Assembly (NCBI GenBank): GCA_964016885.1
Contig: OZ024743.1
Coordinates: 200,260,001 to 200,324,000 of the forward strand
Direction: 5' to 3'
Length of the DNA stretch: 64,000 nucleotides
DNA from: Eledone cirrhosa
Taxonomy: Eukaryota
Positions within the stretch are counted from its first letter, which is position 1; every line of letters begins with the position of its first letter. Both the position numbers and the translations under genes were made by a program. The notes under the pieces were generated by a model. That model was not told the DNA's origin. It searched no databases and was given only the letters and a program-made list of their open reading frames with translations. Shown here one piece after another: positions 1-55,194 of the stretch.

Positions 1-85
1 TTCCTATTACCCACTCTACTACGCTAAGTATTGAGTACTTTGGTGCGTTATGGTCTATCTGGTTCCTTACCACATTTCCTTCGTT
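1..85 (+). mobile_element. 3'-terminal fragment of the Penelope-like element family (family A), ending in (TA)n
   Basis: ttcctattaccactctactac...gagtactttggtgcgttatgg...ccttcgt|TATATA aligns by eye with 53697-53781, the 3' end of the RT/GIY-YIG element. Confidence 0.85.
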
Positions 86-6400: not shown

Positions 6401-8080
6401 ACACCACCACCACTAACAACAACAAACAGTACATCACTTTCAGCAACACCAGCAACACCATCAACAGCAGCAACACCACCACCACTAACAACAACAAACA
6501 GTACATCACTTTCAGCAACACCAGCAACACCATCAACAGCAGCAACACCACCACCACTAACAACAACAAACAGTACATCACTTTCAGCAACATCAGCAAC
6601 GCCATCAACAGCAGCACCACCACCACCACTAACAACAACAAACAGTACATCACTTTCAGCAACAACAGCAACACCATCAACAGCAGCAACACCACCACCA
6701 CTAACAACAACAAACAGTACATCACTTTCAGCAACAACAGCAACACCATCAACAGCAGCAACACCACCACCACTAACAACAACAAACAGTACATCACTTT
6801 CAGCAACACCAGCAACACCATCAACAGCAGCAACACCACCACCACTAACAACAACAAACAGTACATCACTTTCAGCAACAACAGCAACACCATCAACAGC
6901 AGCACCACCACCACCACTAACAACAACAAACAGTACATCACCTCAGCAACAACAGCAACACCATCAACAGCAGCAACACCACCACCACTAACAACAACAA
7001 ACAGTACATCACTTTCAGCAACAACAGCAACACCATCAACAGCAGCAACACCACCACCACTAACAACAACAAACAGTACATCACTTTCAGCAACACCAGC
7101 AACACCATCAACAGCAGCAACACCACCACCACTAACAACAACAAACAGTACATCACTTTCAGCAACACCAGCAACACCATCAACAGCAGCAACACCACCA
7201 CCACTAACAACAACAAACAGTACATCACCTCAGCAACAACAGCAACACCATCAACAGCAGCAACACCACCACCACTAACAACAACAAACAGTACATCACC
7301 TCAGCAACAACAGCAACACCATCAACAGCAGCACCACCACCACCACTAACAACAACAAACAGTACATCACCTTTCAGCAACAACAGCAACACCATCAACA
7401 GCAGCACCACCACCACCACTAACAACAACAAACAGTACATTTACTTCAGCAACATCAGCAACACCATCAACAGCAGCACCACCACCACCACTAACAACAA
7501 CAAACAGTACATCACCTTTCAGCAACAACAGCAACACCATCAACAGCAGCACCACCACCACCACTAACAACAACAAACAGTACATTTACTTCAGCAACAC
7601 CAGCAACACCATCAACAGCAGCACCACCACCACCACTAACAACAACAAACAGTACATTTACTTCAGCAACATCAGCAACACCATCAACAGCAGCACCACC
7701 ACCACCACTAACAACAACAAACAGTACATCACCTTTCAGCAACAACAGCAACACCATCAACAGCAGCACCACCACCACCACTAACAACAACAAACAGTAC
7801 ATCACCTTTCAGCAACAACAGCAACACCATCAACAGCAGCACCACCACCACCACTAACAACAACAAACAGTACATCACCTTTCAGCAACAACAGCAACAC
7901 CATCAACAGCAGCACCACCACCACCACTAACAACAACAAACAGTACATTTACTTCAGCAACACCAGCAACACCATCAACAGCAGCACCACCACCACCACT
8001 AACAACAACAAACAGTACATTTACTTCAGCAACACCAGCAACACCATCAACAGCAGCACCACCACCACCACTAACAACAA
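6400..8080. repeat. 71-73 bp minisatellite, about 23 copies
   Basis: Unit caccaccaccactaacaacaacaaacagtacatcactttcagcaacaccagcaacaccatcaacagcagcaa with 1-nt indel variants. Confidence 0.97.
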
Positions 8081-10894: not shown

Positions 10895-11022
10895 ATAAGT
10901 GTGGTAAGGAACCAGGTGGACCATAACGCACCAGAGTACTCGATACTTAGGACAGTAGAGTCAGTTCGGATCTAGCTGTCGAAACAGCCGGAGCTCAGCC
11001 GTCGGGGTCCTGACTCTTTTCC
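10895..11022. mobile_element. Family A mini-element (minus-strand tail fused to a plus-strand hammerhead 3' half)
   Basis: gtggtaaggaaccag...gagtactcgatacttag is the tail in reverse; then ctgtcGAAACagccggagctcagccGTCggggtcctgactcttttcc|TATATA. Confidence 0.85.
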
Positions 11023-16859: not shown

Positions 16860-17740
16860 ACCACCACCATCACAACCACGACCATCGGAACCATTACTAT
16901 GACGACAATCACCAGCAAAACAACTACTATAGCAACCATCCCCATCACAACCACCACCATCACGACCACGACCATCGCAACCACTACTATGACGACAACC
17001 ACCACAACAACGGCTACTATAACAACTATCAACATCACAACCACCACCATCACGACCACGACCATCGCAACCACTACTTTGACGACAACCACCACAACAA
17101 CAGCTACTATAACAAGCATCACCATCACAACCACCACCATCACAACCACCACCATCACAACCACCACCATCACGACCACGACCATCGCAACCACTACTAT
17201 GACGACAAGCACCACAACAACGGCTACTATAACAACCATCCCCATCACAACCACCACCATCACGACCACGACCATTGCAACCACTACTATGACGACAACC
17301 ACCACAACAACGGCTACTATAACAACTATCACCATCACAACCATCACCATCACAACCACCACCATCGCAACCACTACTATGACGACAAACACCACAACAA
17401 CAGCTACTATAACAACGATCACCATCACAACCATCACCATCACAACCACCACCATCACAACCACCACCATCGCAACCATTACTATGACGACAATCACCAG
17501 CAAAACAACTACTATAACAACGATCACCATCACAACCATCACCATCACAACCACCACCATCACAACGACCACCATCGCAACCATTACTATGACGACAGTC
17601 ACCAGCTAAACAACTACTATAACAACGATCACCATCACAACCATCAACATCACAACCACCACCATCGCAACCACCACCATCGCAACCATTACTATGACGA
17701 CAATCACCAGCAAAACAACTACTATAACAACGATCACCAT
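16860..17740. repeat. Higher-order array of about 90-120 bp units built from diverged 15-mers
   Basis: Recurrent accatcgcaaccactactatgacgacaaccaccacaacaacggctactataacaa separated by variable numbers of accatcacaacc 15-mers. Confidence 0.92.
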
Positions 17741-20700
17741 CACAACCATCAACATCACAACCATCAACATCACAACTATCAACATCACAACCATCAACAT
17801 CACAACCATCAACATCACAACCATCAACATCACAACTATCAACATCACAACTATCACCATCACAACCATCAACATCACAACCATCAACATCACAACCATC
17901 AACATCACAACCATCAACATCACAACCATCAAAATCACAACCATCAACATCACAACCATCAACATCACAACTATCACCATCACAACCATCAACATCACAA
18001 CCATCAACATCACAACTATCAACATCACAACTATCATCATCACAGCCATCAACATCACAACCATCAACATCACAACCATCAACATCACAACCATCAACAT
18101 CACAACCATCAACATCACAACCACCAACATCACAACCATCAACATCACAACCATCAACATCACAACCATCAACATCACAACCATCAACATCACAACTATC
18201 AACATCACAACTATCACCATCACAACCACCAACATCACAACTATCAACATCACAACTATCACCATCACAACCATCAACATCACAACCATCAACATCACAA
18301 CTATCAACATCACAACCATCAACATCACAACCATCAACATCACAACTATCAACATCACAACCATCAACATCACAACCATCAACATCACAACTATCAACAT
18401 CACAACTATCACCATCACAACCATCAACATCACAACCATCAACATCACAACCATCAACATCACAACTATCAACATCACAACCATCAACATCACAACCATC
18501 AACATCACAACCATCAACATCACAACCATCAACATCACAACTATCAACATCACAACTATCACGATCACAACCATCAACATCACAACCATCAACATCACAA
18601 CCATCAACATCACAACTATCAACATCACAACCATCAACATCACAACCACCAACATCACAACTATCAACATCACAACCATCAACATCACAACTATCACCAT
18701 CACAACCATCAACATCACAACCATCAACATCACAACCATCAACATCACAACCATCAACATCACAACCATCAACATCACAACCATCAACATCACAACTATC
18801 AACATCACAACTATCACCATCACAACCATCATCATCACAACTATCAACATCACAACTATCACCATCACAACCATCAACATCACAACCATCAACATCACAA
18901 CTATCAACATCACAACCATCAACATCACAACCATCAACATCACAACTATCAACATCACAACCATCAACATCACAACCATCAATATCACAACTATCAACAT
19001 CACAACTATCACCATCACAACCATCAACATCACAACCATCAACATCACAACCATCAACATCACAACTATCAACATCACAACCATCAACATCACAACCATC
19101 AACATCACAACCATCAACATCACAACCATCAACATCACAACCATCAACATCACAACCATCAACATCACAACTATCAACATCACAACCATCAACATCACAA
19201 CCATCAACATCACAACCATCAACATCACAACCATCAACATCACAACCATCAACATCACAACTATCAACATCACAACCATCAACATCACAACCATCAACAT
19301 CACAACCATCAACATCACAACCATCAACATCACAGCTATCAACATCACAACTATCACCATCACAACCATCAACATCACAACCATCAACATCACAACCATC
19401 AACATCACAACTATCAACATCACAACCATCAACATCACAACTATCACCATCACAACCATCAACATCACAACTATCAACATCACAACCATCAACATCACAA
19501 CCATCAACATCACAACTATCAACATCACAACCATCAACATCACAACCATCAACATCACAACTATCAACATCACAACTATCACCATCACAACCATCAACAT
19601 CACAACCATCAACATCACAACCATCAACATCACAACTATCAACATCACAACCATCAACATCACAACCATCAACATCACAACCATCAACATCACAACCATC
19701 AACATCACAACCATCAACATCACAACTATCATCATCACAGCCATCAACATCACAACCATCAACATCACAACCATCAACATCACAACCATCAACATCACAA
19801 CCATCAACATCACAACCATCAACATTACAACCATCAACATCACAACCATCAACATCACAACCACCAACATCACAACCATCAACATCACAACCATCAACAT
19901 CACAACCATCAACATCACAACCATCAACATCACAACTATCAACATCACAACTATCACCATCACAACCATCAACATCACAACTATCAACATCACAACTATC
20001 ACCATCACAACCATCAACATCACAACCATCAACATCACAACTATCAACATCACAACTATCACCATCACAACCATCAACATCACAACTATCAACATCACAA
20101 CTATCACCATCACAACCATCAACATCACAACCATCAACATCACAACTATCAACATCACAACCATCAACATCACAACCATCAACATCACAACTATCAACAT
20201 CACAACCATCAACATCACAACCATCAACATCACAACTATCAGCATCACAACTATCACCATCACAACCATCAACATCACAACCATCAACATCACAACCATC
20301 AACATCACAATTATCAACATCACAACCATCAACGTCACAACCATCAACATCACAACCATCAACATCACAACCATCAACATCACAACCATCAACATCACAA
20401 CTATCAGCATCACAACTATCACCATCACAACCATCAACATCACAACTATCAACATCACAACTATCACCATCACAACCATCAACATCACAACCATCAACAT
20501 CACAACCATCAACATCACAACCATCAACATCACAACCATCAACATCATAACTATCAACATCACAACCATCAACATCACAACCATCAACATCACAACTATC
20601 AACATCACAACTATCACCATCACAACCATCAACATCACAACCATCAACATCACAACCATCAACATCACAACCATCAACATCACAACTATCAACATCACAA

Positions 20701-23460
20701 CCATCAACATCACAACCATCAACATCACAACTATCAACATCACAACTATCACCATCACAACCATCAACATCACAACCATCAACATCACAACCATCAACAT
20801 CACAACCATCAACATCACAACTATCAACATCACAACCATCAACATCACAACCATCAACATCACAACCATCAACATCACAACCATCAACATCACAACCATC
20901 AACATCACAACCATCAAGATCACAACTATCACCATCACAACCATCAACATAACAACCATCAACATCACAACTATCACCATCACAACCATCAACATCACAA
21001 CCATCAACATCACAACCATCAACATCACAACCATCAACATCACAACCATCACCATCACAACCATCAACATAACAACCATCAACATCACAGCCATCAACAT
21101 CACAACCATCAACATCACAACCATCAACATCACAACCATCACCATCACAACCATCAACATCACAACCATCAACATCACAACTATCAACATCACAACTATC
21201 ACCATCACAACCATCAACAGCACAACTATCAACATCACAACCATCAACATCACAACCATCAACATCACAACTATCACCATCACAACCATCAACATGACAA
21301 CCATCAACATCACAACCTTCAACATCACAACCATCAATATCACAACCACCAACATCACAACCATCAACATGACAACCATCAACATGACAACCATCAACAT
21401 CACAACTATCAACATCACAACTATCAACATCACAACCATCAACATCACAACCATCAACATCACAACCATCAACATCACAACCATCACCATCACAACCATC
21501 AACATCACAACCATCAATATCACAACTATCAACATCACAACTATCACCATCACAACCATCAACAGCACAACTATCAACATCACAACCATCAACATCACAA
21601 CCATCAACATCACAACTATCACCATCACAACCATCAACATGACAACCATCAACATCACAACCATCAACATCACAACCATCAATATCACAACCACCAACAT
21701 GACAACCATCAACATGACAACCATCAACATCACAACCATCAACATCACAACTATCAACATCACAACTATCAACATCACAACCATCAACATCACAACCATC
21801 AACATCACAACCATCAACATCACAACCATCAACATCACAACCATCAACATCACAACCATCAACATCACAACTATCACCATCACAACTATCACCATCACAA
21901 CCATCAACATCACAACCATCAACATCACAACCATCAACATCACAACCATCAACATCACAACCATCAACATCACAACCATCAACATCACAACTATCACCAT
22001 CACAACTATCACCATCACAACCATCAACATCACAACTATCAACATCACAACCATCAACATCACAACCATCAACATCACAACTATCACCATCACAACTATC
22101 ACCATCACAACCATCAACATCACAACCATCAACATCACAACCATCAACATCACAACCATCAACATCACAACTATCACCATCACAACTATCACCATCACAA
22201 CCATCAACATCACAACCATCAACATCACAACCATCAACATCACAACCATCAACATCACAACCATCAACATCACAACCATCAACATCACAACTATCACCAT
22301 CACAACTATCAACATCACAACCATCAACATCACAACCATCAACATCACAACTATCACCATCACAACCATCAACATGACAACCATCAACATCACAACCATC
22401 AACATCACAACCATCAATATCACAACCATCAACATCACAACCATCAACATCACAACCATCAACATCACAACTATCAACATCACAACTATCACCATCACAA
22501 CAATCAACATCACAACCATCAACATCACAACCATCAACATCACAACCATCAACATCACAACTATCACCATCACAACCATCAACATCACAACCATCAACAT
22601 CACAACCATCAACATCACAACCATCAACATCACAACCATCAACATCACAACCATCAACATCACAACCATCAACATCACAACCATCAACATCACAACCATC
22701 AACATCACAACCATCAACATCACAGCCATCAACATCACAACCATCAACATCACAACTATCAACATCACAACCATCAACATCACAACCATCAACATCACCA
22801 CCATCAACATCACAACCATCAACATCACAACCATCAACATCACCACCATCAACATCACAACCATCAACATCACAACCATCAACATCACAACCATCAACAT
22901 CACAACCATCAACATCACAACTATCAACATCACAACCATCAACATCACAACCATCAACATCACCACCATCAACATCACAACCATCAACATCACAACCATC
23001 AACATCACCACCATCAACATCACAACCATCAACATCACAACCATCAACATCACCACCATCAACATCACAACCATCAACATCACAACCATCAACAACACAA
23101 CCATCAACATCACAACCATCAACATCACAACCATCAACATCACAACTATCAACATCACAACCATCAACATCACAACCATCAACATCACAACCATCAACAT
23201 CACAACCATCAACATCACAACTATCACCATCACAACTATCACCATCACAACCATCAACATCACAACCATCAACATCACAACCATCAACATCACAACCATC
23301 AACATCACAACCATCAACATCACAACCATCAACATCACAACCACCAACATCACAACCACCAACATCACAACCATCAACATCACAACCACCACTATCACAA
23401 CCACCAACATCACAACCATCAACATCACAACCACCACTATCACAACCACCACTATCACAA
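17740..23460. repeat. 15-bp satellite (cacaaccatcaacat)n, about 380 copies
   Basis: Phase of 15 is kept throughout, with substitution variants only (ctatc, accat, gacaa, cacca). Confidence 0.99.
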
Positions 23461-23736
23461 CCACTATAGCCATTATCATCTGAATTATCAAAATACCATT
23501 ATAATGTACCACAACCATTGAACAAATGTTACTATAACCTATTTAACACTACCACCTCTGTCACAATCGTCTTCATCGCCGCCATTATCATCCTCGTCGT
23601 CGTCGTCACCATCATCAGCATCAGCGACACCACCACTACTGCTACTACTACCAACACGACCATCATGACTATCCGGTTACATAATCAGTATTAGTAGTGT
23701 CCATCATAACATCAAATCCACACACACACACACACA

Positions 23737-23767
<31 letters not shown>

Positions 23768-24113
23768 CACACACACACCACACATACACCACACACACAC
23801 AAACACAGTATATATATATATATATATAATATATGTAGTAATAAACACAGTAAATCGTGTGTCTAAAATGCTCAGTATTTATACTTTGAGCTTGTTAATC
23901 ACAGGGTATCAGTATGAGTTATTAACTGCCTTTTATTTGTGTGTGTATATATATATATATATATATTCATGCGTGTTTTAGATATCAAATTCCTGTTGAA
24001 CAATAAAACTTTGTTTATATAACTGCATATCTTTGCACGTTCTCTTGCAGATAAAACACAAACAGGTGTACACATAATCTATTTATCTATCTATCTATAT
24101 ATCTATATATATC

Positions 24114-24208
<95 letters not shown>

Positions 24209-24730
24209 CACAAAAACAAGATGGTGTAAGACAGAACAAAGGTGAGATACAAAATAACTAGAAAAGTAGTCAATAAGGAGGTCACAGAATGTGTGACGAA
24301 AGTGCTTCAATGACAATCAACAACTAAACAAACATTCGGTTATTAAACTAACCAGGTACAGCTACTTTACAATTATTTCTACTACTATTAGTACTACTAT
24401 CACCACAACCACCACCTATACTACTACTACCTCCAACACCACCACTATTACTAATACTAATACTACTACTATAACGACAGCTAGAACAATTATTCTACAA
24501 TTATTACTACTACTATCAGTACTACCACCAATACTACTACTACTACGTCCAACACCACCACTATTACTACTACTAATACTACTACTATAACGACAGCTAG
24601 AACAGTGTCAACCCCATCACCACTACCACCAACAACAACAATGACAGCTAGAATAGTGTCAACAACAACAATGACAACAATGACAGCTAGAATAACGTCA
24701 ACCACACCACCACCACCAGAAATAACAACA

Positions 24731-24910
24731 ATAATTGTTTCTACTTTAGGCACAAGACCAGCAATTACCCAGTACATTACTGGTACTTTATTTTATCGAC
24801 CCCGTAAGGATGAAAGGCAAAGTTAACCTCGGCGGGATTTGAACTCAGACTGTAAAGGGACGTAACTATGCTAGAAAGCATGGCGTCCAACCCTCTACCG
24901 ATACTGCCAA
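24731..24910 (-). mobile_element. tRNA-derived SINE, family 1
   Basis: Reverse complement: A-box tggcagtatcgg, B-box gagttcaaatccc, central block, tail ...gtagaaacaattat. Confidence 0.92.
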
Positions 24911-25180
24911 ATGACAGATAGAAGAGTGTCAACCACAACTACAGCAACAACAACAACAGCAAGAATATTGGCTACAATGGCAATGAGGACACAAAGAAGA
25001 AACGTAAAAATGAAAAGATGGAGGGAGAGAGAGAGAGAAGAGGTGGGTGGAAGAGAGATAGGGAGATATAGAACTGATATACTAGATAAATAGATAGATA
25101 AAGGGAGAGATGATGGCGGCGAAGTTTATGAAAGAAACAAGAAAGGATTGAGACAGAGGATCCGATAGAGACAAGGAAAT

Positions 25181-25275
<95 letters not shown>

Positions 25276-25302
25276 CAGAGAGAGAGAGAGAGAGGGAGAG
25301 GG

Positions 25303-25360
<58 letters not shown>

Positions 25361-25736
25361 TGGAGACAGAGAAAGTGAGAGAGAGAGAGTGAGAGAGAGA
25401 GAGAGAAATGTTGATAAATATATAGAGAGAGGAGGAGTATATGTGACATGGAAGATTCAATAGATATAGAGACAGAGACAGACGGAAATAAATTGTATAT
25501 GAGATAAGGAAGACTTTGGAGAAAGAAAGAAAGAGGGTGAGAGAGAGAGGGGGTAAAGGGGGTCAGTAAATGATGAAAATGATTTGAAAGATCGAGAGGG
25601 GGAGAGATTGAGAGATAGGGAGATAGGGGGAAAGAGAGAGAGATAAATAGGGATAAAAAGTGAGAGAAAGATAGGGAGAAATAGATAAAGAGATAGGGAG
25701 AGATAGATAGATACATAGTTAGAGGGATAGATAGAT

Positions 25737-25793
<57 letters not shown>

Positions 25794-25874
25794 GATCTAA
25801 ACAGTGAAATTGAAAGAATTGTATAACAAAAGATCCATTGATTTTTCGTGGCATTCTAATACTCAACCAACAAC

Positions 25875-27142
25875 CAACCCTCCACCACACCACTCCACCA
25901 CAGCTAACCCTCCACCACAGCTAACCCTCCACCACAGCCAACCCTCCACCACACCACTCCACCACAGCTAACCCTCCACCAGAGCTAACACTCCACCACA
26001 GCCTACCCTCCACCACATCACTCCACCACAGCTAACCCTCCACCACAGCCAACCCTCCACCACAGCCAACCCTTCACCACAGCCAACACTCCACCACAGC
26101 CAACCCTCCACCACAGCCAACCGTCCTCCACAGCCAACCCTCCACCACAGCCAACCCTTCACCCAAAAGATCCATTGATTTTTCGTGGCATTCTAATACT
26201 CAACCAACAACCAACCCTCCACCACACCACTCCACCACAGCTAACCCTCCACCACAGCTAACCCTCCACCACAGCCAACCCTCCACCACACCACTCCACC
26301 ACAGCTAACCCTCCACCAGAGCTAACACTCCACCACAGCCTACCCTCCACCACATCACTCCACCACAGCTAACCCTCCACCACAGCCAACCCTCCACCAC
26401 AGCCAACCCTTCACCACAGCCAACACTCCACCACAGCCAACCCTCCACCACAGCCAACCGTCCTCCACAGCCAACCCTCCACCACAGCCAACCCTTCACC
26501 ACAGCCAACACTCCACCACAGCCAACCCTCCACCACAACCAACCGTCTTCCACAGCCAACCCTCCACCACAGCCAACCCTCCACCACAGCCAACCCTTCA
26601 CCACAGCCAACACTCCACCACAGCCAACCGTCCTCCACAGACAAACCTCCTCCACAGCCAACCCTCCACCACAGCCAACCCTTCACCACAGCCAACACTC
26701 CACCACAGCCAACACTCCACCACAGCCAACCCTCCACCACAGCCAACCCTCCACCACAGCCAAACCTCCTCCACAGCCAACCCTCCACCACAGCCAACCC
26801 TTCACCACAGCCAACACTCCACCACAGCCAACCCTCCACCACAGCCAACCCTTCACCACAGCCAACACTCCACCACAACCAACCCTCCACCACAGCCAAC
26901 CCTCCACCACAGCTAACCCTCCACCACAGCCAACCCTCCTCCACAGCCAACCCTCCACCACAGCCAACCCTCCACCACAGCCAACACTCCACCACAGCCA
27001 ACCCTCCACCACAGCCAACCCTTCACCACAGCCAACCCTCCTCCACAGCCAACCCTCCTCCACAGCCAACCCTCCACCACAGCCAACCCTTCACCACAGC
27101 CAACACTCCACCACAACCAACCCTCCACCACAGCCAACCCTA
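25875..27142. repeat. 17-bp minisatellite (ccaccacagccaaccct)n containing a 337-bp tandem duplication of its left boundary
   Basis: Unit read directly. The unique flank caaaagatccattgatttttcgtggcattctaatactc occurs at 25827 and 26164. Confidence 0.97.
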
Positions 27143-27259
27143 ACTCACGTTCTTCAAACTCACAGACACAAACAATCATATACATATACGTACACAGACA
27201 TATCATGCCACCTGAACTTCTAACTACCTGTCCATACACATACACTTACCAGCATCAGC

Positions 27260-28830
27260 ACCACCACCGCCATCACTATTACCACCTCTACCACCACCAC
27301 CATCACTAACACCACCGCCATCACTATTACCTCCTCTACCACCACCACCATCACTAACACCACCGCCATCACTATTACCTCCTCTACCACCACCACCATC
27401 ACTAACACCACCGCCATCACTATTACCACCTCTACTACCACCATCATCACTAACACCACCGCCATCACTATTACCACCTCTACTACCACCACCATCACTA
27501 ACACCACCGCCATCACTCTTACCACCTCTACCACCACCACCATCACCATCACTAACACCACCGCCATCACTATTACCACCTCTACCACCACCACCATCAC
27601 CATCACTAACACCACCACCATCACTCTTACCACCTCTACCACCACCACCATCACCATCACTAACACCACCGCCATCACTATTACCACCTCTACCACCACC
27701 ACCATCACCATCACTAACTCCACCGCCATCACTATTACCACCTCTACCATCACCACCATCACCATCACTAACACCACCGCCATCACTATTACCACCTCTA
27801 CCACCACCACCATCACCATCACTAACACCACCGCCATCACTCTTACCACCTCTACCATCACCACCATCACCATCACTAACACCACCCCCATCACTCTTAC
27901 CACCTCTACCATCACCACCATCACCATCACTAACACCACCGCCATCACTATTACCACCTCTACCATCACCACCATCACCATCAGTAACACCACCGCCATC
28001 ACTATTACCACCTCTACCATCACCACCATCACCATCATTAACACCACCCCCATCACTATTACCACCTCTACCATCACCACCATCACCTTCACTAACACCA
28101 CCCCCATCACTCTTACCACCTCTACCATCACCACCATCACCATCACTAACACCACCGCCATCACTCTTACCACCTCTACCATCACCACCATCACTAACAC
28201 CACCGCCATCACTATTACCACCTCTACCACCACCACCATCACCATCACTAACACCACCGCCATCACTATTACCACCTCTACCACCACCACCATCACCATC
28301 ACTAACACCACCGCCATCACTATTACCACCTCTACCATCACCACCATCACCATCACTAACACCACCGCCATCACTCTTACCACCACTACCATCACTACCA
28401 TCACCATCACTAACACCACCGCCATCACTATTACCACCTCTACCATCACCACCATCACCATCACTAACACCACCGCCATCACTCTTACCACCTCTACCAT
28501 CACCACCATCACCATCACTAACACCACCGCCATCACTATTACCACCTCTACCATCACCACCATCACCATCACTAACACCACCGCCATCACTATTACCACC
28601 TCTACCACCACCACCATCACCATCACTAACACCACCGCCATCACTATTACCACCTCTACCATCACCACCATCACCATCACTAACACCACCGCCATCACTC
28701 TTACCACCTCTACCATCACCACCATCACCATCACTAACACCACCGCCATCACTATTACCACCTCTACCATCACCACCATCACCATCACTAACACCACCGC
28801 CATCACTATTACCACCTCTACCATCATCTC
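27260..28830. repeat. 48/54-bp C/A-rich minisatellite
   Basis: Unit accaccgccatcactattaccacctctaccatcaccaccatc(accatc)actaac. Confidence 0.96.
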
Positions 28831-29370
28831 CATCTCGTCTTTTTAAAAGCTCAGCTTCGTGGTATCGAAAAACAGTCCTGCGAGGAATATATCAACACTG
28901 CGAAACAATCAATCATATAAGAGTCTTTAAAAGAATGGCAACTTCCGTATGGGAATGGGACCAAAAGGTTTGGCAAATGTAGCGTTTCCTTTGTTAGTTG
29001 TGTTTAGCACAGCAGTGAGTTGGCATGGTGGCTGCCGGTTGAATGCTTTAGATTGTGGCACAAATAACTGACTGACTGGCTAGCTAGCTGGCTGGTTGGT
29101 TAGTTCGTTTGTTTGTTTGTTTGTTCAATGGTTCATTGGTCATCTAACTGGCTCATTGGTTCCTTTATCGACTGCAGCTGATGGTGCTGTTGATGTTACT
29201 AATGGTAAAGTGTGGTGCCAGTAGGGTGGGAGGTTTAGATCTGCAATATAATCATTAATTTTTAACAGTGGCGCATGTGGTATATAAACTTTTAGAGAAG
29301 GGAGACTCCTAAACACAAACACACACATACACACACACACACTTACACACACTGACACACACACACACTG

Positions 29371-43289: not shown

Positions 43290-43356
43290 AGAATACTCGA
43301 TACTTGGGGGTAGTAGAATGTAAATATAGTAGAGTCGGGCCCCGACGGCTGAGCTG
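43290..43356 (-). mobile_element. Decayed family A fragment
   Basis: gaatactcgatacttgggggtagtaga...cccgacggctgagct. Confidence 0.6.
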
Positions 43357-43837
43357 TTGTCGTTTTGTTCGACAGCAAATTGCAGGCTCTAAAATTTGCT
43401 GTTGAAACGGCAAGTGATACAAATATTTCGGGTGGATTGGGATGGAGCAGGTGCGTGATTAGTTAATTCGGTGAAGCATGAGACTTGGTAGAATGGATAT
43501 AGAGATAAGGTAATACGCCAGTGACCTGGTTCATGAGTAAATATTTTAAACGTTAATAGTGTTAATATTTGATCAGGTATGAGATACACTTGTTAATATA
43601 TTTCTTTAGTAAGACATCGGTCTTATCCTTCTAGCTGACTTCCTAATCATAGCGGGCGTCTTTTCATGACTACTGAATTTACTAGAAAATGCATCCACAA
43701 CACACCATCAAATCAAACCTCACCGTTTTCAAAAACAAACAAAAACAATGGCGTGACACATGGATAATGCATGACTAGATACACTATCACTGAAAGAAAC
43801 GTCACGAAGATCATACGTAGAAATCAAATATCATTTA

Positions 43838-46276: not shown

Positions 46277-46278
<2 letters not shown>

Positions 46279-46336
46279 AAAAGAGTCAGGACCCCGACGG
46301 CTGAGCTCCGGCCGTTTCGACAGCTAGATCCGAACT
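46277..46336 (-). mobile_element. Family A fragment (hammerhead 3' half) joined to (TA)n
   Basis: Near-exact reverse complement of 10963-11022. Confidence 0.85.
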
Positions 46337-46430
46337 AAGCCACCAATACACACACACACATATACACATATATATATATATTAGTGTGTGTGTGTGTGTA
46401 CATATATACATATATCATAATATATACGAG

Positions 46431-49806: not shown

Positions 49807-49992
49807 AGGCACAAGTATGACCCCGACGGCAGAGCTCAAGCCGTTTCGACGGCTATGTCCAGAAATAGCCGTCGAAACGGCTTGAGCTCTGCCGTCGGGG
49901 TCATACTTGTTCCTGTTAACCACTCTACTACCCTAAGTATTGAGTACTTTGGGGCGTTATTTTCCATCTGGTTCCTTACCACAATTCCTTCG

Positions 49993-49993
<1 letters not shown>
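49807..49993 (+). mobile_element. Family A palindromic mini-element between two (TA)n tracts
   Basis: 50-bp arms at 49807-49856 and 49865-49914 with one mismatch and an 8-nt loop, followed by the family A tail ending cttcgt|TATATA. Confidence 0.92.
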
Positions 49994-50061
<68 letters not shown>

Positions 50062-50094
50062 TATATATATGTGTGTGTGTATGCGTGTAAGTGT

Positions 50095-50129
<35 letters not shown>

Positions 50130-50398
50130 AGTGTATGTGTACGTGTGTGTGTGTGTGTGTATATGTGTGTGTGTGAGTGCAGTTATGGATACCATTGCTG
50201 TGTGGATATGTCTATTCTGTATCTCTACGTATATATATATATCCTCTCTAGTTCGGCATAAATATTCTATATTCCACTAATCTTAATACTATATTAACAT
50301 CTGCTAGGCAGATAGTTCCCACTTCTGTTGACGCCTTCTTTTCTCAGTCCCATAACCTTGTGTATGTTTATATATATGTATGTATATATGCATGTACG

Positions 50399-50458
<60 letters not shown>

Positions 50459-50589
50459 GATAAATCTACCAAAAGTTTACGGTAGTGTCCAATCCGTATG
50501 AAGAACTCAATGTAATACGGATATCATGAAAAGAGAAGATGCATTCAAAAACTACTTTCGGTGAAAAATAAACGGAAAACAGAGTCAAG

Positions 50590-50767
50590 ATAAATTAATA
50601 AAATAATGAATAAACAAAGAACCAGTTCCTTATATGTATAAATATTGTACATAGATCTAAAGAATATGCATACCAACTCTAACACATATATATCCTAGAA
50701 ACGATCGTAAAATGATGAATTTTTTTAATATAAGGAACTGGTTCTTTGTTTATTCATTATTTTATTA

Positions 50768-50773
<6 letters not shown>
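50590..50773. repeat. 46-bp inverted repeat with 92-nt spacer, ending at (TA)n
   Basis: ataaattaataaaataatgaataaacaaagaaccagttccttatat and its reverse complement at 50728-50773. Confidence 0.9.
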
Positions 50774-50853
<80 letters not shown>

Positions 50854-50880
50854 GTGTATATATATATAGGAACGAGTAGG

Positions 50881-50976
50881 ACCCCGGCGGCTGAGCTCAG
50901 GCCGTTTCGACGGCTAATTCTGGACTAAATGAAAATTGTTATCCTCGTATATGAATAGCCGAGCTTCTCAGGGGGT
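50881..50976 (-). ncRNA. Hammerhead-like motif in the inverted pseudo-LTR
   Basis: Reverse complement acccc-CTGAGAA-gctcggcta...tagccgtc-GAAAC-ggcctgagctcagcc-GCC-ggggt; the triplet reads GCC. Confidence 0.55.
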
Positions 50977-51442
50977 AATTCCATATATGGTAAAAGTGAT
51001 TGTCACAAGGATTGGTCAAAAGTGTGTTGTTGAGTCACATAATTCTATCATGGCAATTTGTGGAAGGAAGCGGTAGCTGAATCTGCCAGTAGAAGAAAGA
51101 GGGAGAGGGAGTGGAGGAAACCTAGTCGTGCGTTGATAGTGCCACTACAGCAGGGTAGGAGGTCAAGCAAGTATACTAGGGTGGGGGAGGGGGATGAAGT
51201 CGAAACAATAAGTAAATCAATATGGAGTAAATATATAGAAGAATACCAAGAATGTTAAAAGTATAAAAAAATAATTTCTGGTTACTATTCCCTAACGACA
51301 GTCATCAAGTCTCTCACTGGTACTGCTAAACTATAGAAAAGTTTACTAGGTGGGACGAAATTGTAATGAGACCATTTTAAGAGTTAGTAGTAATCAACCG
51401 AGTATATCTTACGGTGACAGGTCAACAAGTGGGGGGCCAAAA

Positions 51443-53035
51443 TCAGTAAAAAAAATCCTAGACCGCGTTATACCAAAAGTTAACCAAAACGCCAGACTTA
51501 GCCTATGGGTCAACACCCAGGAAGTAATCTCATGGTTCAGAAATATGGAGGACAAACGAGACACAAAATTCAACCAGTATGACAAAGAGAGATACTATGC
51601 TTCAATTACCTTACCGCTAATTACGGCTGCCTTGCACTTTGCCGATACACTTGCGCCCATCACCGACAAGGAAAGAAACATCATCCTCCACGCCAGGAAG
51701 ACATTCCTACTTTTCGACAACTCCAAATGGATAAAGAGAGCTCCCGACTCGCCCTTCGACGTCAGCATGGGCGCGACGGATTCGGCTGAGGTCACAGATC
51801 TTATAGGATTATTCCTACTAGTTAAACTCACCGATATGTTTCCTGCATTCGGCGGTGGATTGTACCGTGATGATGGGCTCCTTACCCTTAAAGGGTACAA
51901 CCCCAGTAGTACAGACCGGGTCCGTAAACAATTAATCAGCTTCTTCCGCGACTGGGGATTTAAAATAACCCTACAAACGTCCCTGACCCGAGTAAACTTC
52001 CTGGACGTTACCCTTGACCTCGATAATGATCTGTACTGGAAACCCAACGACAACCTGCAGTACATCCACCGCCGGTCAAACCATCATAGGAACATCACCA
52101 ATAACCTGGTTAAAAACATCTCCCTCCGCATATCTCGTTTGTCCGCTAATGAGCAGATATTCGAGGAATTTGCGCCTTATTACAACCAGGCCTTCAAGCA
52201 GAGTGGTTTCCGGGAGTAAATATCCTACTGTCCAGCTTCCATTAGCGGAACCAGCAGGCGACACCGCCGCTCACGCAATGTAACATGGTTCAATTCTCCC
52301 CACAACGCCGAGGTGACAACTCCTATCGGAAAAATCTTCTTTAGGCTCATCGAAAAACACTTCCCACTACAACACCGCTACCACAACATAATCAACAAAA
52401 ATACCATCAAACTCTCCTACAGCACCACACCAAACTTTGCACAAAACATCGTCTCCTCTAACAACAAAAAACTCAACCCCTATGTAAGAAATAACCTAAA
52501 TAGCAGTGGAGAGCCGACCAGGAGGTGCAACTGTCCTGATGGATCCATTTTCCCCCTCGACAACAGATGCAGAGATCGTAATGTGATCTACCAGTGCAAC
52601 GTGAGGACGGACACCTCCAACAAAGCTTATATAGGATTAACCGCATGTGACTTCAAGACCCGGCTATACCAACACAGACATACTATCCGAAGCCCGGCCC
52701 GGCGTCACGCCACCACACTTTCGGGCCACATCTGGGACCTCAAAGGTAACAATATTACCTATGATCTCACTTGGAGCTTACTGTCCAGAGCCAACTCTTA
52801 CACGGGAGGACGCCGTCCGTGCAATTTATGCTCGGAGGAAACTTTACAAATGCTGTTTTCGACGGACCAACTCCTAAACAAGAAAGACGAACTGGTAACT
52901 GCATGCAAACACAGATTGCGTAGGACTTACCTCGCCCTCAAACCCCATAATGACCCGGGGGGGGGGGGGGTAGACAAGGGCTGTAACATCCCACTTGCCG
53001 ACTTTTTTATGGGTAACCCCTGCTTGCAAAGGTAA
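51443..53035 (+). pseudogene. PLE polyprotein (reverse transcriptase, linker, GIY-YIG endonuclease) with one in-frame TAA at 52217-52219
   Basis: QYD...YYASI, FDVSMGATDSAE, GLYRDDGL, VNFLDVTLDL, YIHRRSNH; same frame continues RNVTWFNSP..IGKIF..LIEKHFP, CNC..C, VIYQ..YIG..FKTRLYQH, TTLSGHIW, CNLC. The two track ORFs 51350-52219 and 52313-53035 are in one frame. Confidence 0.93.
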
Positions 53036-53592
53036 CCCCTGCTTTAATTTCTCGTACATCAGTATTTTTTTTTTTTGGTGGGGGATTCTGAATTAATTTT
53101 CCGTATCAAATTTTTCATATACTTCGTACGAGCATTTATGTAGTTTGCACTAGAATTCTTGTATCGTAGCGGCACCCTTAGAGATAGTATTAGTATTCAT
53201 TTTCGGGATTCTGAATTATTATTTTGTATTAGTTTATTTTTTGCACTGGGTGGTTGCTGGCCTTGTGCCTAGGGAAGAAACAATTATTTCGTATTGTTTT
53301 TTTATACTTTTAACATTCTCGGTATTCTTCTATATACTTACTCCATATTGATTTACTTATTGTTTCGACTACCTCCCCCTCCCCCTCCCTAGTATACTTA
53401 CTTGACCTCCTGCCCTGCTGTAGTTGGCACTATCAACGCACGACTGGGTTTCCTCCACTCCCTCTCCCTCTTTCTTCTACTGGCAGGTTCAGCTACCGCT
53501 TCCTTCCACAAATTGCCATGATAGAATTATGTGTCTCAACAACAAACTTTTGACAAATCCTTGTGACAATCACTTTTACCATATATGGAATT

Positions 53593-53688
53593 ACCCCCTG
53601 AGAAGCTCGGCTATACATATACCAGGATAAAAATGTTCATTTAGTCCAGAATTAGCCGTCGAAACGGCTTGAGCTCAGCCGTTGGCGT
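53593..53688 (+). ncRNA. Hammerhead-like motif in the 3' pseudo-LTR
   Basis: acccc-CTGAGAA-gctcggcta...tagccgtc-GAAAC-ggcttgagctcagcc-GTT-ggcgt; other copies give the consensus GTC-ggggt. Confidence 0.6.
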
Positions 53689-54711
53689 CCTACTCGTTTC
53701 TATTACCCACTCTACTACTCTAAGTATTGAGTACTTCGGTGCGTTATGGTCCACCTGGTTCCTTACCACATTTCCTTCGTTATGTATATATATATATATG
53801 AATATATGTATGTATGAATGTATGTATGTATGTATAAAAGTATGTATGCGTGTGTATGTATATATATGAATGTATGTATGTATGAATATATGTATGTATG
53901 TATGAATGTATGTATGCGTGTGTATGTATATATATGAATGTATGTATGAATATATGTATGTATGTATGTATCTTTATATGTATGTATGTATTATGTATGT
54001 ATGCAATTTTATATGTATGTATGTATATATGTATGTATTATGTATGAATGTATGTATGTATATTTATGAATGTATGTATGATTGCATGTTTATATGCATG
54101 TATATGTGTGTGTGTATGAATGTATGTATGTATGAATGTAAGTATGTATGAATATATATATATATGTATGTAATATATTTATTTATGTATGTGTGAATGT
54201 GTGTAAGTATGTATACGTATGAATATATATATATATACACATCCATGTATGCATATATTTGGATAGATATCCATGTAGTTATGTATCTATGTTTATATGT
54301 ACGTATGTGTGTGTATATGTGTGATTCAGTAAAGGCAAATTGGTGTTTGGCGTGTCGGTTTCAAAGTTCGACGTATAATAATTAAGATTCCAAACAAAAT
54401 TGTTAAAACAAAGAGTGTGAAACAAGATCTTCAGGTTAGTATTGTTTACAAATTATGGCTCATACAATTGGAGATAAACGTAGGTGATACTCCAATACAT
54501 TGCTGTTATGTATGAACAAGGAACCTTCCATGGTTACAATAGTATTTACTTATGGCTGCGTGGGTATGGTAGGGAAAATCAATGGGTTGAAAAAGTCATC
54601 TTCGCATTCTGATGGTTTATGGTTCAGTACAACCACGCAGCATGAAATAAAACTTCTATTACTAGATACTCGTTTTTATGTGACCAACACCATCATGTGA
54701 TTGGAATTAAC

Positions 54712-55194
<483 letters not shown>

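Follow-up and report, generated by a model that had tools for sequence, protein, structure and literature searches.

What kind of integration leaves the ends of one retroelement strewn through a genome as small palindromes that stop, again and again, at the same two points beside TA repeats? The question arises from a 64,000-nt stretch of the Eledone cirrhosa genome (GCA_964016885.1, contig OZ024743.1, forward-strand positions 200,260,001–200,324,000; hereafter the window), which holds a truncated Penelope-like element (PLE) encoding a reverse transcriptase (RT) and a GIY-YIG endonuclease, together with short modules derived from its hammerhead-bearing end. The integration pattern is genuine and highly stereotyped, and it exemplifies known PLE architecture: its two-point plan is that of the PLE ‘tail’ and inverted 5′ copy already published, as described in the available text of three studies (PMC8557442, PMC3846280, PMC11167929), a link that the initial annotation of the window had not recognised. 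By analogy with those systems, the two points are the known bounds of the tail and likely two RT start sites, here 80 nt apart.

Positions are numbered from hammerhead residue H17 (0; window position 53683 in the long copy). The proximal junction, P, lies at +17 (..TTCC, then TAT) and the distal junction, D, at +97 (..CTTCGT, then TAT), in agreement with the two clusters of TA junctions first placed about 17 and 97 nt past the cleavage site. A BLAST search of the window with the end of the long element recovered every module that had been listed. P ends lie at 710, 11022, 46277, 49808 (a TGCC variant), 50869 and 54774 (a near-match), and D ends at 84, 519, 49993 and 53780; the D coordinates given originally fall within the TAT overlap.

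Across the source genome (3.0 Gb, microsatellite-rich), the 24-mer upstream of both junctions has 61,069 exact matches, and the exact junction patterns number 27,044 for P/TA and 32,235 for D/TA, a ratio of about 1:1. Backward-read controls gave 0 matches in each case and TATATA follows a random position at a background rate of 2.4%, so that chance is excluded. The first 100 matches of the 24-mer, taken from the first 14 Mb of C1 regardless of their ends, comprise 55 ends at P (+17 to +23), 42 at D, two elsewhere and one internal to a tandem (both arms of an insert are counted separately, and three divergent or deleted copies were classed by eye). A (TA)n flank, scored by eye as three or more TA units with a single mismatch allowed, adjoins 93 of the 97 P or D ends. 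The stereotyped two-point integration into (TA)n proposed from the window thus holds genome-wide: junctions are not scattered, and their flanks are enriched for TA. Contigs from public sequencing runs, which may stem from the assembly's own sample, also have loose ends at P and D. Taken together, the TA runs on either side of an insert have a median length of 51 nt, compared with a length-weighted background of 17 nt, the ends having been pre-selected for TA-like starts. Target-site duplications are not readable within (TA)n.

P and D occur as a pair, at rates that rest on samples. Adjacent outward-facing ends at most 7 kb apart combine P with D in 45 of 48 cases (two DD, one PP), 40 of the 45 being less than 200 bp apart; this count draws on the 86 of 100 listed P places within the range of the D list and on all 100 D places. 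Longer two-armed inserts, a set partly selected via a D-containing query, are PD in 62 of 64 cases and PP in two. In both sets the P and D arms are inverted relative to each other, as had been proposed. Either arm may be longer (in L128 the D arm is about 260 bp and the P arm about 5.3 kb). Long and short copies do share one plan, the long insertion of the window being an inverted P arm plus a D end. The features of this insertion and of the short modules are as follows, in window coordinates:

50869–53780: long copy, whole insertion; inverted arm, truncated open reading frame (ORF), deleted 3′ untranslated region (UTR), hammerhead, tail to D
50869–51454, minus strand: P arm of the long copy, inverted and spanning +17 to about −577; its outer end, TTCC/TATA, abuts (TA)n
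51441–52975, plus strand: 5′-truncated ORF of the long copy (~1.6 kb); RT from the N-terminal region on, CxCx5C linker, GIY-YIG endonuclease
52976–53592, plus strand: 3′ UTR of the long copy; shorter than in other copies through internal deletions near 53034 and 53296
53593–53688, plus strand: type I hammerhead motif of the long copy; stem I ACCCC/GGGGU, core CUGAGAA, GAAA, stem III with GAGCUC loop
53612–53619, plus strand: TATA-like box of the long copy, ~30 nt upstream of the wall described below; TATTTAAA in the young family; putative function
53641–53645, plus strand: initiator-like TTAGT; its A at 53643 is −40, the commonest arm stop and predicted transcription start
53700–53703, plus strand: junction P of the long copy, +17, then TAT; likely RT start site 1
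53701–53780, plus strand: one-sided 80-nt tail of the long copy, ending at D (+97, CTTCGT/TAT); likely RT start site 2
49808–49993: minimal P+D hairpin in (TA)n, old subfamily
1–84, plus strand: tail and D end of a hairpin crossing the window start; P arm just upstream of the window (stretch L049)
519–710: minimal D+P hairpin, reverse orientation; turn junction −34/−40
10898–11022: two arms in inverted orientation without overlap; (TA)n at the P end, distal end stopping ~9 nt before D
46277–46338, minus strand: lone P arm ending at about −42; diverged subfamily, TTAGTT
54774–54889: short P arm and D arm, barely overlapping
43290–43381, minus strand: decayed remnant, ~71% identical, no TA junction

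Minimal copies had been described as near-perfect hairpins. This is true of 519–710, 49808–49993 and the module at the window start, each of which has an unpaired 80-nt tail, but not of 10898–11022, 54774–54889, 46277 or 43290–43381. The ORF of the long copy has one in-frame stop (TAA, 52217–52219) and a poly-G expansion at its natural end; its GIY-YIG match is weak (E=0.007, below the Pfam cut-off), and the cleavage triplet of the copy has drifted to GUU.

A search for the parent protein scored 147 of 43,030 candidates, and 24 rows have a 784-aa open frame (717 aa from the first Met) that encodes both RT and GIY-YIG domains. The parent unit is 3,531 bp long (period 3,528–3,543 bp) and forms tandems of up to four or more units. 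The protein is ~40% identical over its full length to many homologues of ~700 aa, the top one of which (P0002) has PF01541. The Penelope identity first assigned to the element is upheld: a single RT/GIY-YIG ORF, tandem units with pseudo-long terminal repeats (pseudo-LTRs) and an inverted 5′ copy characterise it as an endonuclease-bearing (EN+) PLE. Its motifs RLRWR, SDKTGN, CNCPDRSIC, CNLC and CKH correspond to RWK, DKT, CxCx5C, CxxC and CxH of the Hydra clade. As described in the available parts of PMC8557442, that clade shares with the present element an RWR (RWK-type) motif, DKT, CxCx5C and CxxC/CxH around conserved E and N, a C-terminal GIY-YIG, an ORF of ~700 aa, (TA)n targets and a 3′ hammerhead. 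It differs in length (generally under 3 kb, whereas the unit here exceeds 3 kb because of a long UTR) and in its canonical CUGANGA hammerhead core; the core here is U3-A8 or mismatched, and the hammerhead as a whole matches none of those listed for Hydra in File S2 of that paper. Judged by its sequence, the parent is a young Hydra-like Penelope element. In the youngest inserts the arms are identical over 348 nt, which points to recent activity. In L128 (4191–4391) the frame stays open for 67 codons before the first ATG, a run that spans the hammerhead and both junctions; since homologues begin at the ATG, the extension is probably incidental. Beside an intact-frame element in L130 (2886–7465) lie three extra short P arms (7465–8080), at least two of them after the same non-element sequence, a possible capture of flanking DNA.

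The initial annotation had measured both junctions from a predicted hammerhead cleavage site. In its minimum-energy structure the region folds as type I, with a stability no better than that of shuffles (z 0.5). Predicted cores (n=167) read CUGAGAA in 86 cases, UUGAGAA in 64 and otherwise in 17, with no CUGANGA. UUGAGAA, the core of the young family, has the U3-A8 pair, a variant known from Schistosoma PLEs (PMC4209133, available text). The window's subfamily has the core CUGAGAA, and its C3/A8 mismatch makes cleavage of the long copy doubtful, yet the subfamily has hundreds of long copies. No pile-up of ends occurs at the cleavage point (0/+1) in the 100 copies or in the 60 short inserts described below. 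Because ends do not pile up there and a subfamily with a mismatched core was amplified, a causal link to cleavage is unsupported; the hammerhead is probably a mere landmark for integration. The matches listed from an Rfam scan of the window (150 of 255) were all sub-threshold, nearly all of them microsatellite-driven microRNA (miRNA) matches, and included no hammerhead.

Short inserts record how the two arms meet. Of 71 candidate rows from the first 21 Mb of one chromosome, 11 were dropped (six false P calls, one miscalled, two PP, one DD and one of 579 bp), and the remaining 60 contain 52 distinct turn junctions. The arms overlap at the turn by 0–3 nt in 40 inserts and by 7 nt in one; 19 contain inserted bases. 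Variants in the hairpins mostly match those of long copies; the motifs gtatga and gttcaaga, once read as substitutions private to the arms of single copies, are subfamily variants instead. Both arms of an insert represent one haplotype: at shared polymorphic sites 13 of 521 cells are discordant, against 245 expected if the arms were independent, and of these 13 four are alignment artefacts and seven fall at one G/T site (−48), maybe a mutation hot spot. Two different source RNAs per insert, considered as a rule, are rejected by the same counts. Diverse junctions, variants in common with long copies and a single haplotype together argue for de novo products of one source locus rather than a replicating family. 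The hairpins had been left as either a non-autonomous family or truncation products; short de novo products fit better.

Most arms stop at a sharp wall. In 100 arms, retrieved with a query that demanded reach to −30, stop points lie at −30 to −33 in three, −34 to −46 in 76, −47 to −150 in 10 and beyond in 11. In the 60 short inserts the furthest arm reaches −36 to −46 in 47 and −39 to −41 in 27. Contig depth, which is not copy number and whose step is inflated by divergence, rises from 0.19 to 4.5 million (~20-fold) across −40 and falls to ~0.004 million past D (~1000-fold below the peak). Position −40 is the A of TTAGT/TCAGT, a motif kept in diverged subfamilies, and the TATA-like box TATTTAAA lies ~30 nt upstream, at −69. 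TTAGT/TCAGT resembles the initiator consensus. From these motifs we infer a transcription start at −40, within the TTAGT initiator of the pseudo-LTR. The Penelope promoter has been assigned to the pseudo-LTR (Schostak et al., PMC2377424, available text). On visual inspection, the 100 arms did not consistently carry a cap-derived G at −41.

The window also contains a hairpin insert of a second Penelope-type family (54987–55194) with a canonical hammerhead motif (CUGAAGA...GAAAC AAUU GUU) and 5,346 exact 23-mer matches in the genome. It too has two ends, ~66–70 nt apart, paired, inverted and in (TA)n, with start sites in ACTTCT and CTACC(ACT). An equally sharp wall was not seen in 30 of its copies. 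A (TC)n tract often separates its ends from (TA)n: forward-strand counts are 211 for TC, 1 for AG and 1,754 for TA, and the main family has 52 TC against 13,557 TA-junction matches, the search patterns of the two families not being identical. Telomerase-like stutter was considered as the source of these tracts and rejected. In 20 evenly spaced 10-kb stretches (L031–L050, one adjoining the window), where (TA)5+ makes up 4.9% of bases, (TA)n is preceded by (TC)n at nine of the 920 run ends and by (AG)n at none, which makes this polarity a feature of the genome background; TC-bearing copies also look older, with arm divergence of 8.0% with TC against 3.8% without (measurable in 9/24 and 13/22 copies). 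Post-insertion slippage is therefore preferred.

Guidance of integration by TA microhomology, another early proposal, stands in part. TAT follows D in 15 of 15 internal copies and P in nearly all. Other TAT sites (+42, +62 and +148) and an ATATAT at −99 are unused, however, and the second family starts at non-TAT sites; TAT microhomology is thus insufficient to choose the site, and pairing of 2–3 nt may assist initiation without choosing it.

We consider it probable that the inserts arise by two-sided priming at P and D of one (TA)n cut. Most inserts are ~190-bp stubs, probably because the start sites fall close to where the ordinary transcript begins. Transcription would start at the TTAGT initiator (−40) of the pseudo-LTR. 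A likely dimeric RT/GIY-YIG complex would nick both (TA)n strands; of the two 3′-OH ends, one would prime at P and its partner at D, and ATA:UAU pairing over 3 nt may steady them, while the start position would be set by the RNA–protein complex. On a monomer transcript both cDNAs would run off the RNA 5′ end after ~57 and ~137 nt, the distances that would make the products run-off stubs. On read-through tandem RNA either arm might be kilobases long, and full copies would need such RNA. The two cDNA ends would then be joined head to head, either with short inserts or through 0–3 nt of microhomology. In this scheme a stub would be a dead end, and integration would not depend on hammerhead cleavage. 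A stricter version, which we put forward tentatively as quite possible, would make the reaction obligately asymmetric: a dimer would commit one strand to P and the other to D, each licensed by 3-nt (TA)n pairing, such that ordinary transcripts give only ~190-bp stubs and only read-through tandem RNA propagates the gene.

Arm geometry bears on the choice between two-sided priming and a single priming event in which self-priming or fold-back gives the inverted arm, the endonuclease cuts the copy at P and asymmetry follows by later deletion. Fold-back accounts for the source variants common to both arms, TTCC/TATT is AT-rich, and self-priming or ‘EN-mediated resolution’ has been proposed in the available text of PMC3846280 and PMC8557442. 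Its D-primed form, however, needs the P arm nested in the D arm, and in the 60 short inserts the P arm extends at least 5 nt further upstream in 22, young-subfamily copies included, and the D arm in nine; in L122, L126, L128 and C1b the P arm is longer by kilobases. The P-primed form cannot give a stub its tail, the D arm starts at +14 or later in seven of the 60, and both tail boundaries are RT start sites of the anole enzyme in vitro (PMC11167929, available text). This geometry is impossible for a single fold-back in either direction unless deletions followed; later deletion could mimic asymmetry in old copies but is a harder explanation for young copies and for P arms of kilobase length. 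The geometry favours two primers, and fold-back appears unlikely. Also rather unlikely is a version with two-sided priming in which the −40 wall stems from palindrome erosion, or from a hot spot of annealing or pausing, instead of from an RNA 5′ end. Junctions do spread from −33 to −46, some with 2-nt overlaps in TCCAGA/TCTGGA, and both the inconsistent cap-derived G and the second family's lack of an equally sharp wall fit a hot spot. The edge is nevertheless one-sided, with only three of the 100 arms stopping between −47 and −100; a subfamily whose neighbouring sequence differs (window 10898, 46277) still has its stop at AGT; and the predicted hammerhead stems would be encountered between +5 and −30 rather than at −40. 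That the hairpins form a non-autonomous family, which the parent's enzyme copies in hairpin units, is very improbable. Hairpins vastly outnumber ORF copies, a stub retains the initiator and both start sites, and a few junction types recur. Yet the turn junctions are diverse, and not inherited in common as they would be in a family resembling miniature inverted-repeat transposable elements (MITEs); the recurrent ones sit in different subfamily backgrounds; a copied hairpin would not have an outward-facing fixed P end; and the anole enzyme needed RNA ~55 nt past the distal start site, which stubs do not have (PMC11167929, available text).

Several points nonetheless weigh against two-sided priming on a transcript that starts at −40. 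Three of 48 and two of 64 pairs violate the P+D rule. A shared haplotype is predicted equally well by fold-back, and if two primers are used, both templates must come from one locus. Palindrome erosion could account for asymmetry in the short inserts, whose statistics cover the first 21 Mb of one chromosome. The evidence for the transcription start consists of motifs; the depth step is inflated by subfamily divergence and contig tapering, and the runs are maybe the assembly's own source. Some turn junctions recur in short quasi-palindromes, and an annealing hot spot may add to the wall. For the anole enzyme in vitro, the available text of PMC11167929 reports no strand difference in start site and no target homology.

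Twin priming of L1 elements offers a familiar parallel. There the second target strand primes internally and yields an inverted 5′ part joined by microhomology, as here; unlike in L1, the present element starts at two fixed internal sites and its arms usually share sequence, which calls for two template copies or displacement. PLEs more generally have an inverted 5′-truncated copy, a 30–40-bp tail at one end only and a (TA)n preference, according to the available text of Craig et al. (2021, PMC8557442); the P+D pattern corresponds to this, and the 80-nt tail falls outside the reported length. The Anolis PLE Poseidon nicks and extends both strands, with two internal RT starts bounding the tail, a predicted dimeric enzyme and a hammerhead dispensable in vitro (Frangieh et al. 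2024, PMC11167929, available text). Shared with it are an AT-rich target, an apparently dispensable hammerhead and a pair of fixed ends that lie downstream of that hammerhead, within the 5′ portion of the unit; peculiar to the present element are the tail length (80 against 30–40 nt), TAT after both sites with homology to the target, starts upstream of the first ATG and the use of one site per side in ~95% of inserts. Penelope inserts of Adineta vaga have palindromic turns and TATA/initiator (Inr) motifs, and self-priming was proposed for them (Arkhipova et al. 2013, PMC3846280, available text). They resemble those described here in the inverted 5′ pseudo-LTR, the tail on one end, the palindromic turn and the TATA and Inr-like motifs in the pseudo-LTR, whereas they are few and self-priming was invoked; here there are tens of thousands of stubs, and the geometry favours two primers. 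Non-LTR retrozymes (bioRxiv 10.64898/2026.07.22.740005, available text) are also short non-coding derivatives of PLE pseudo-LTRs, but form direct tandem repeats with complete hammerheads. The stubs were rejected as retrozymes: they are inverted and begin at −40, downstream of the 5′ half of the core, and so lack that half of the ribozyme. Obligate or near-obligate P+D pairing, arm geometry that would require later deletions after a single fold-back, the −40 wall and an 80-nt tail were unreported in the literature searched, which covered few subscription papers.

Some further observations stand apart. Older inserts in L003, L011, L012, L017 and L030 have several internal segments of alternating orientation, which suggests repeated template jumps or rearrangement. 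In public run X5 (organism B, study P2), three low-depth contigs near-identical to the young family carry the D junction and a hairpin, compatible with a relative, contamination or transfer. Within the window, a CTGATGA-containing stretch beside a TA run (1150–1190) may be another hammerhead-bearing repeat end, and extreme GC skew (down to −0.99) at 17000–29000 probably reflects simple tandem repeats.

The added value of these data is quantitative evidence on PLE integration. How PLEs form tandem and inverted inserts is a named open question in the available text of PMC8557442 and PMC11167929; tens of thousands of natural products that obey quantitative rules, namely the pairing of one P with one D and the wall at −40, discriminate between models, and the many near-identical intact ORFs suit an in vitro assay. 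Annotators may mistake palindromic stubs for MITEs, miRNA hairpins or a separate family. If the obligately asymmetric reaction is true, RT stutter at the start sites may also lengthen microsatellites, and a single rule would account for the tails, inverted ends and tandem structure of PLEs as well as for genomic palindromes in the tens of thousands.

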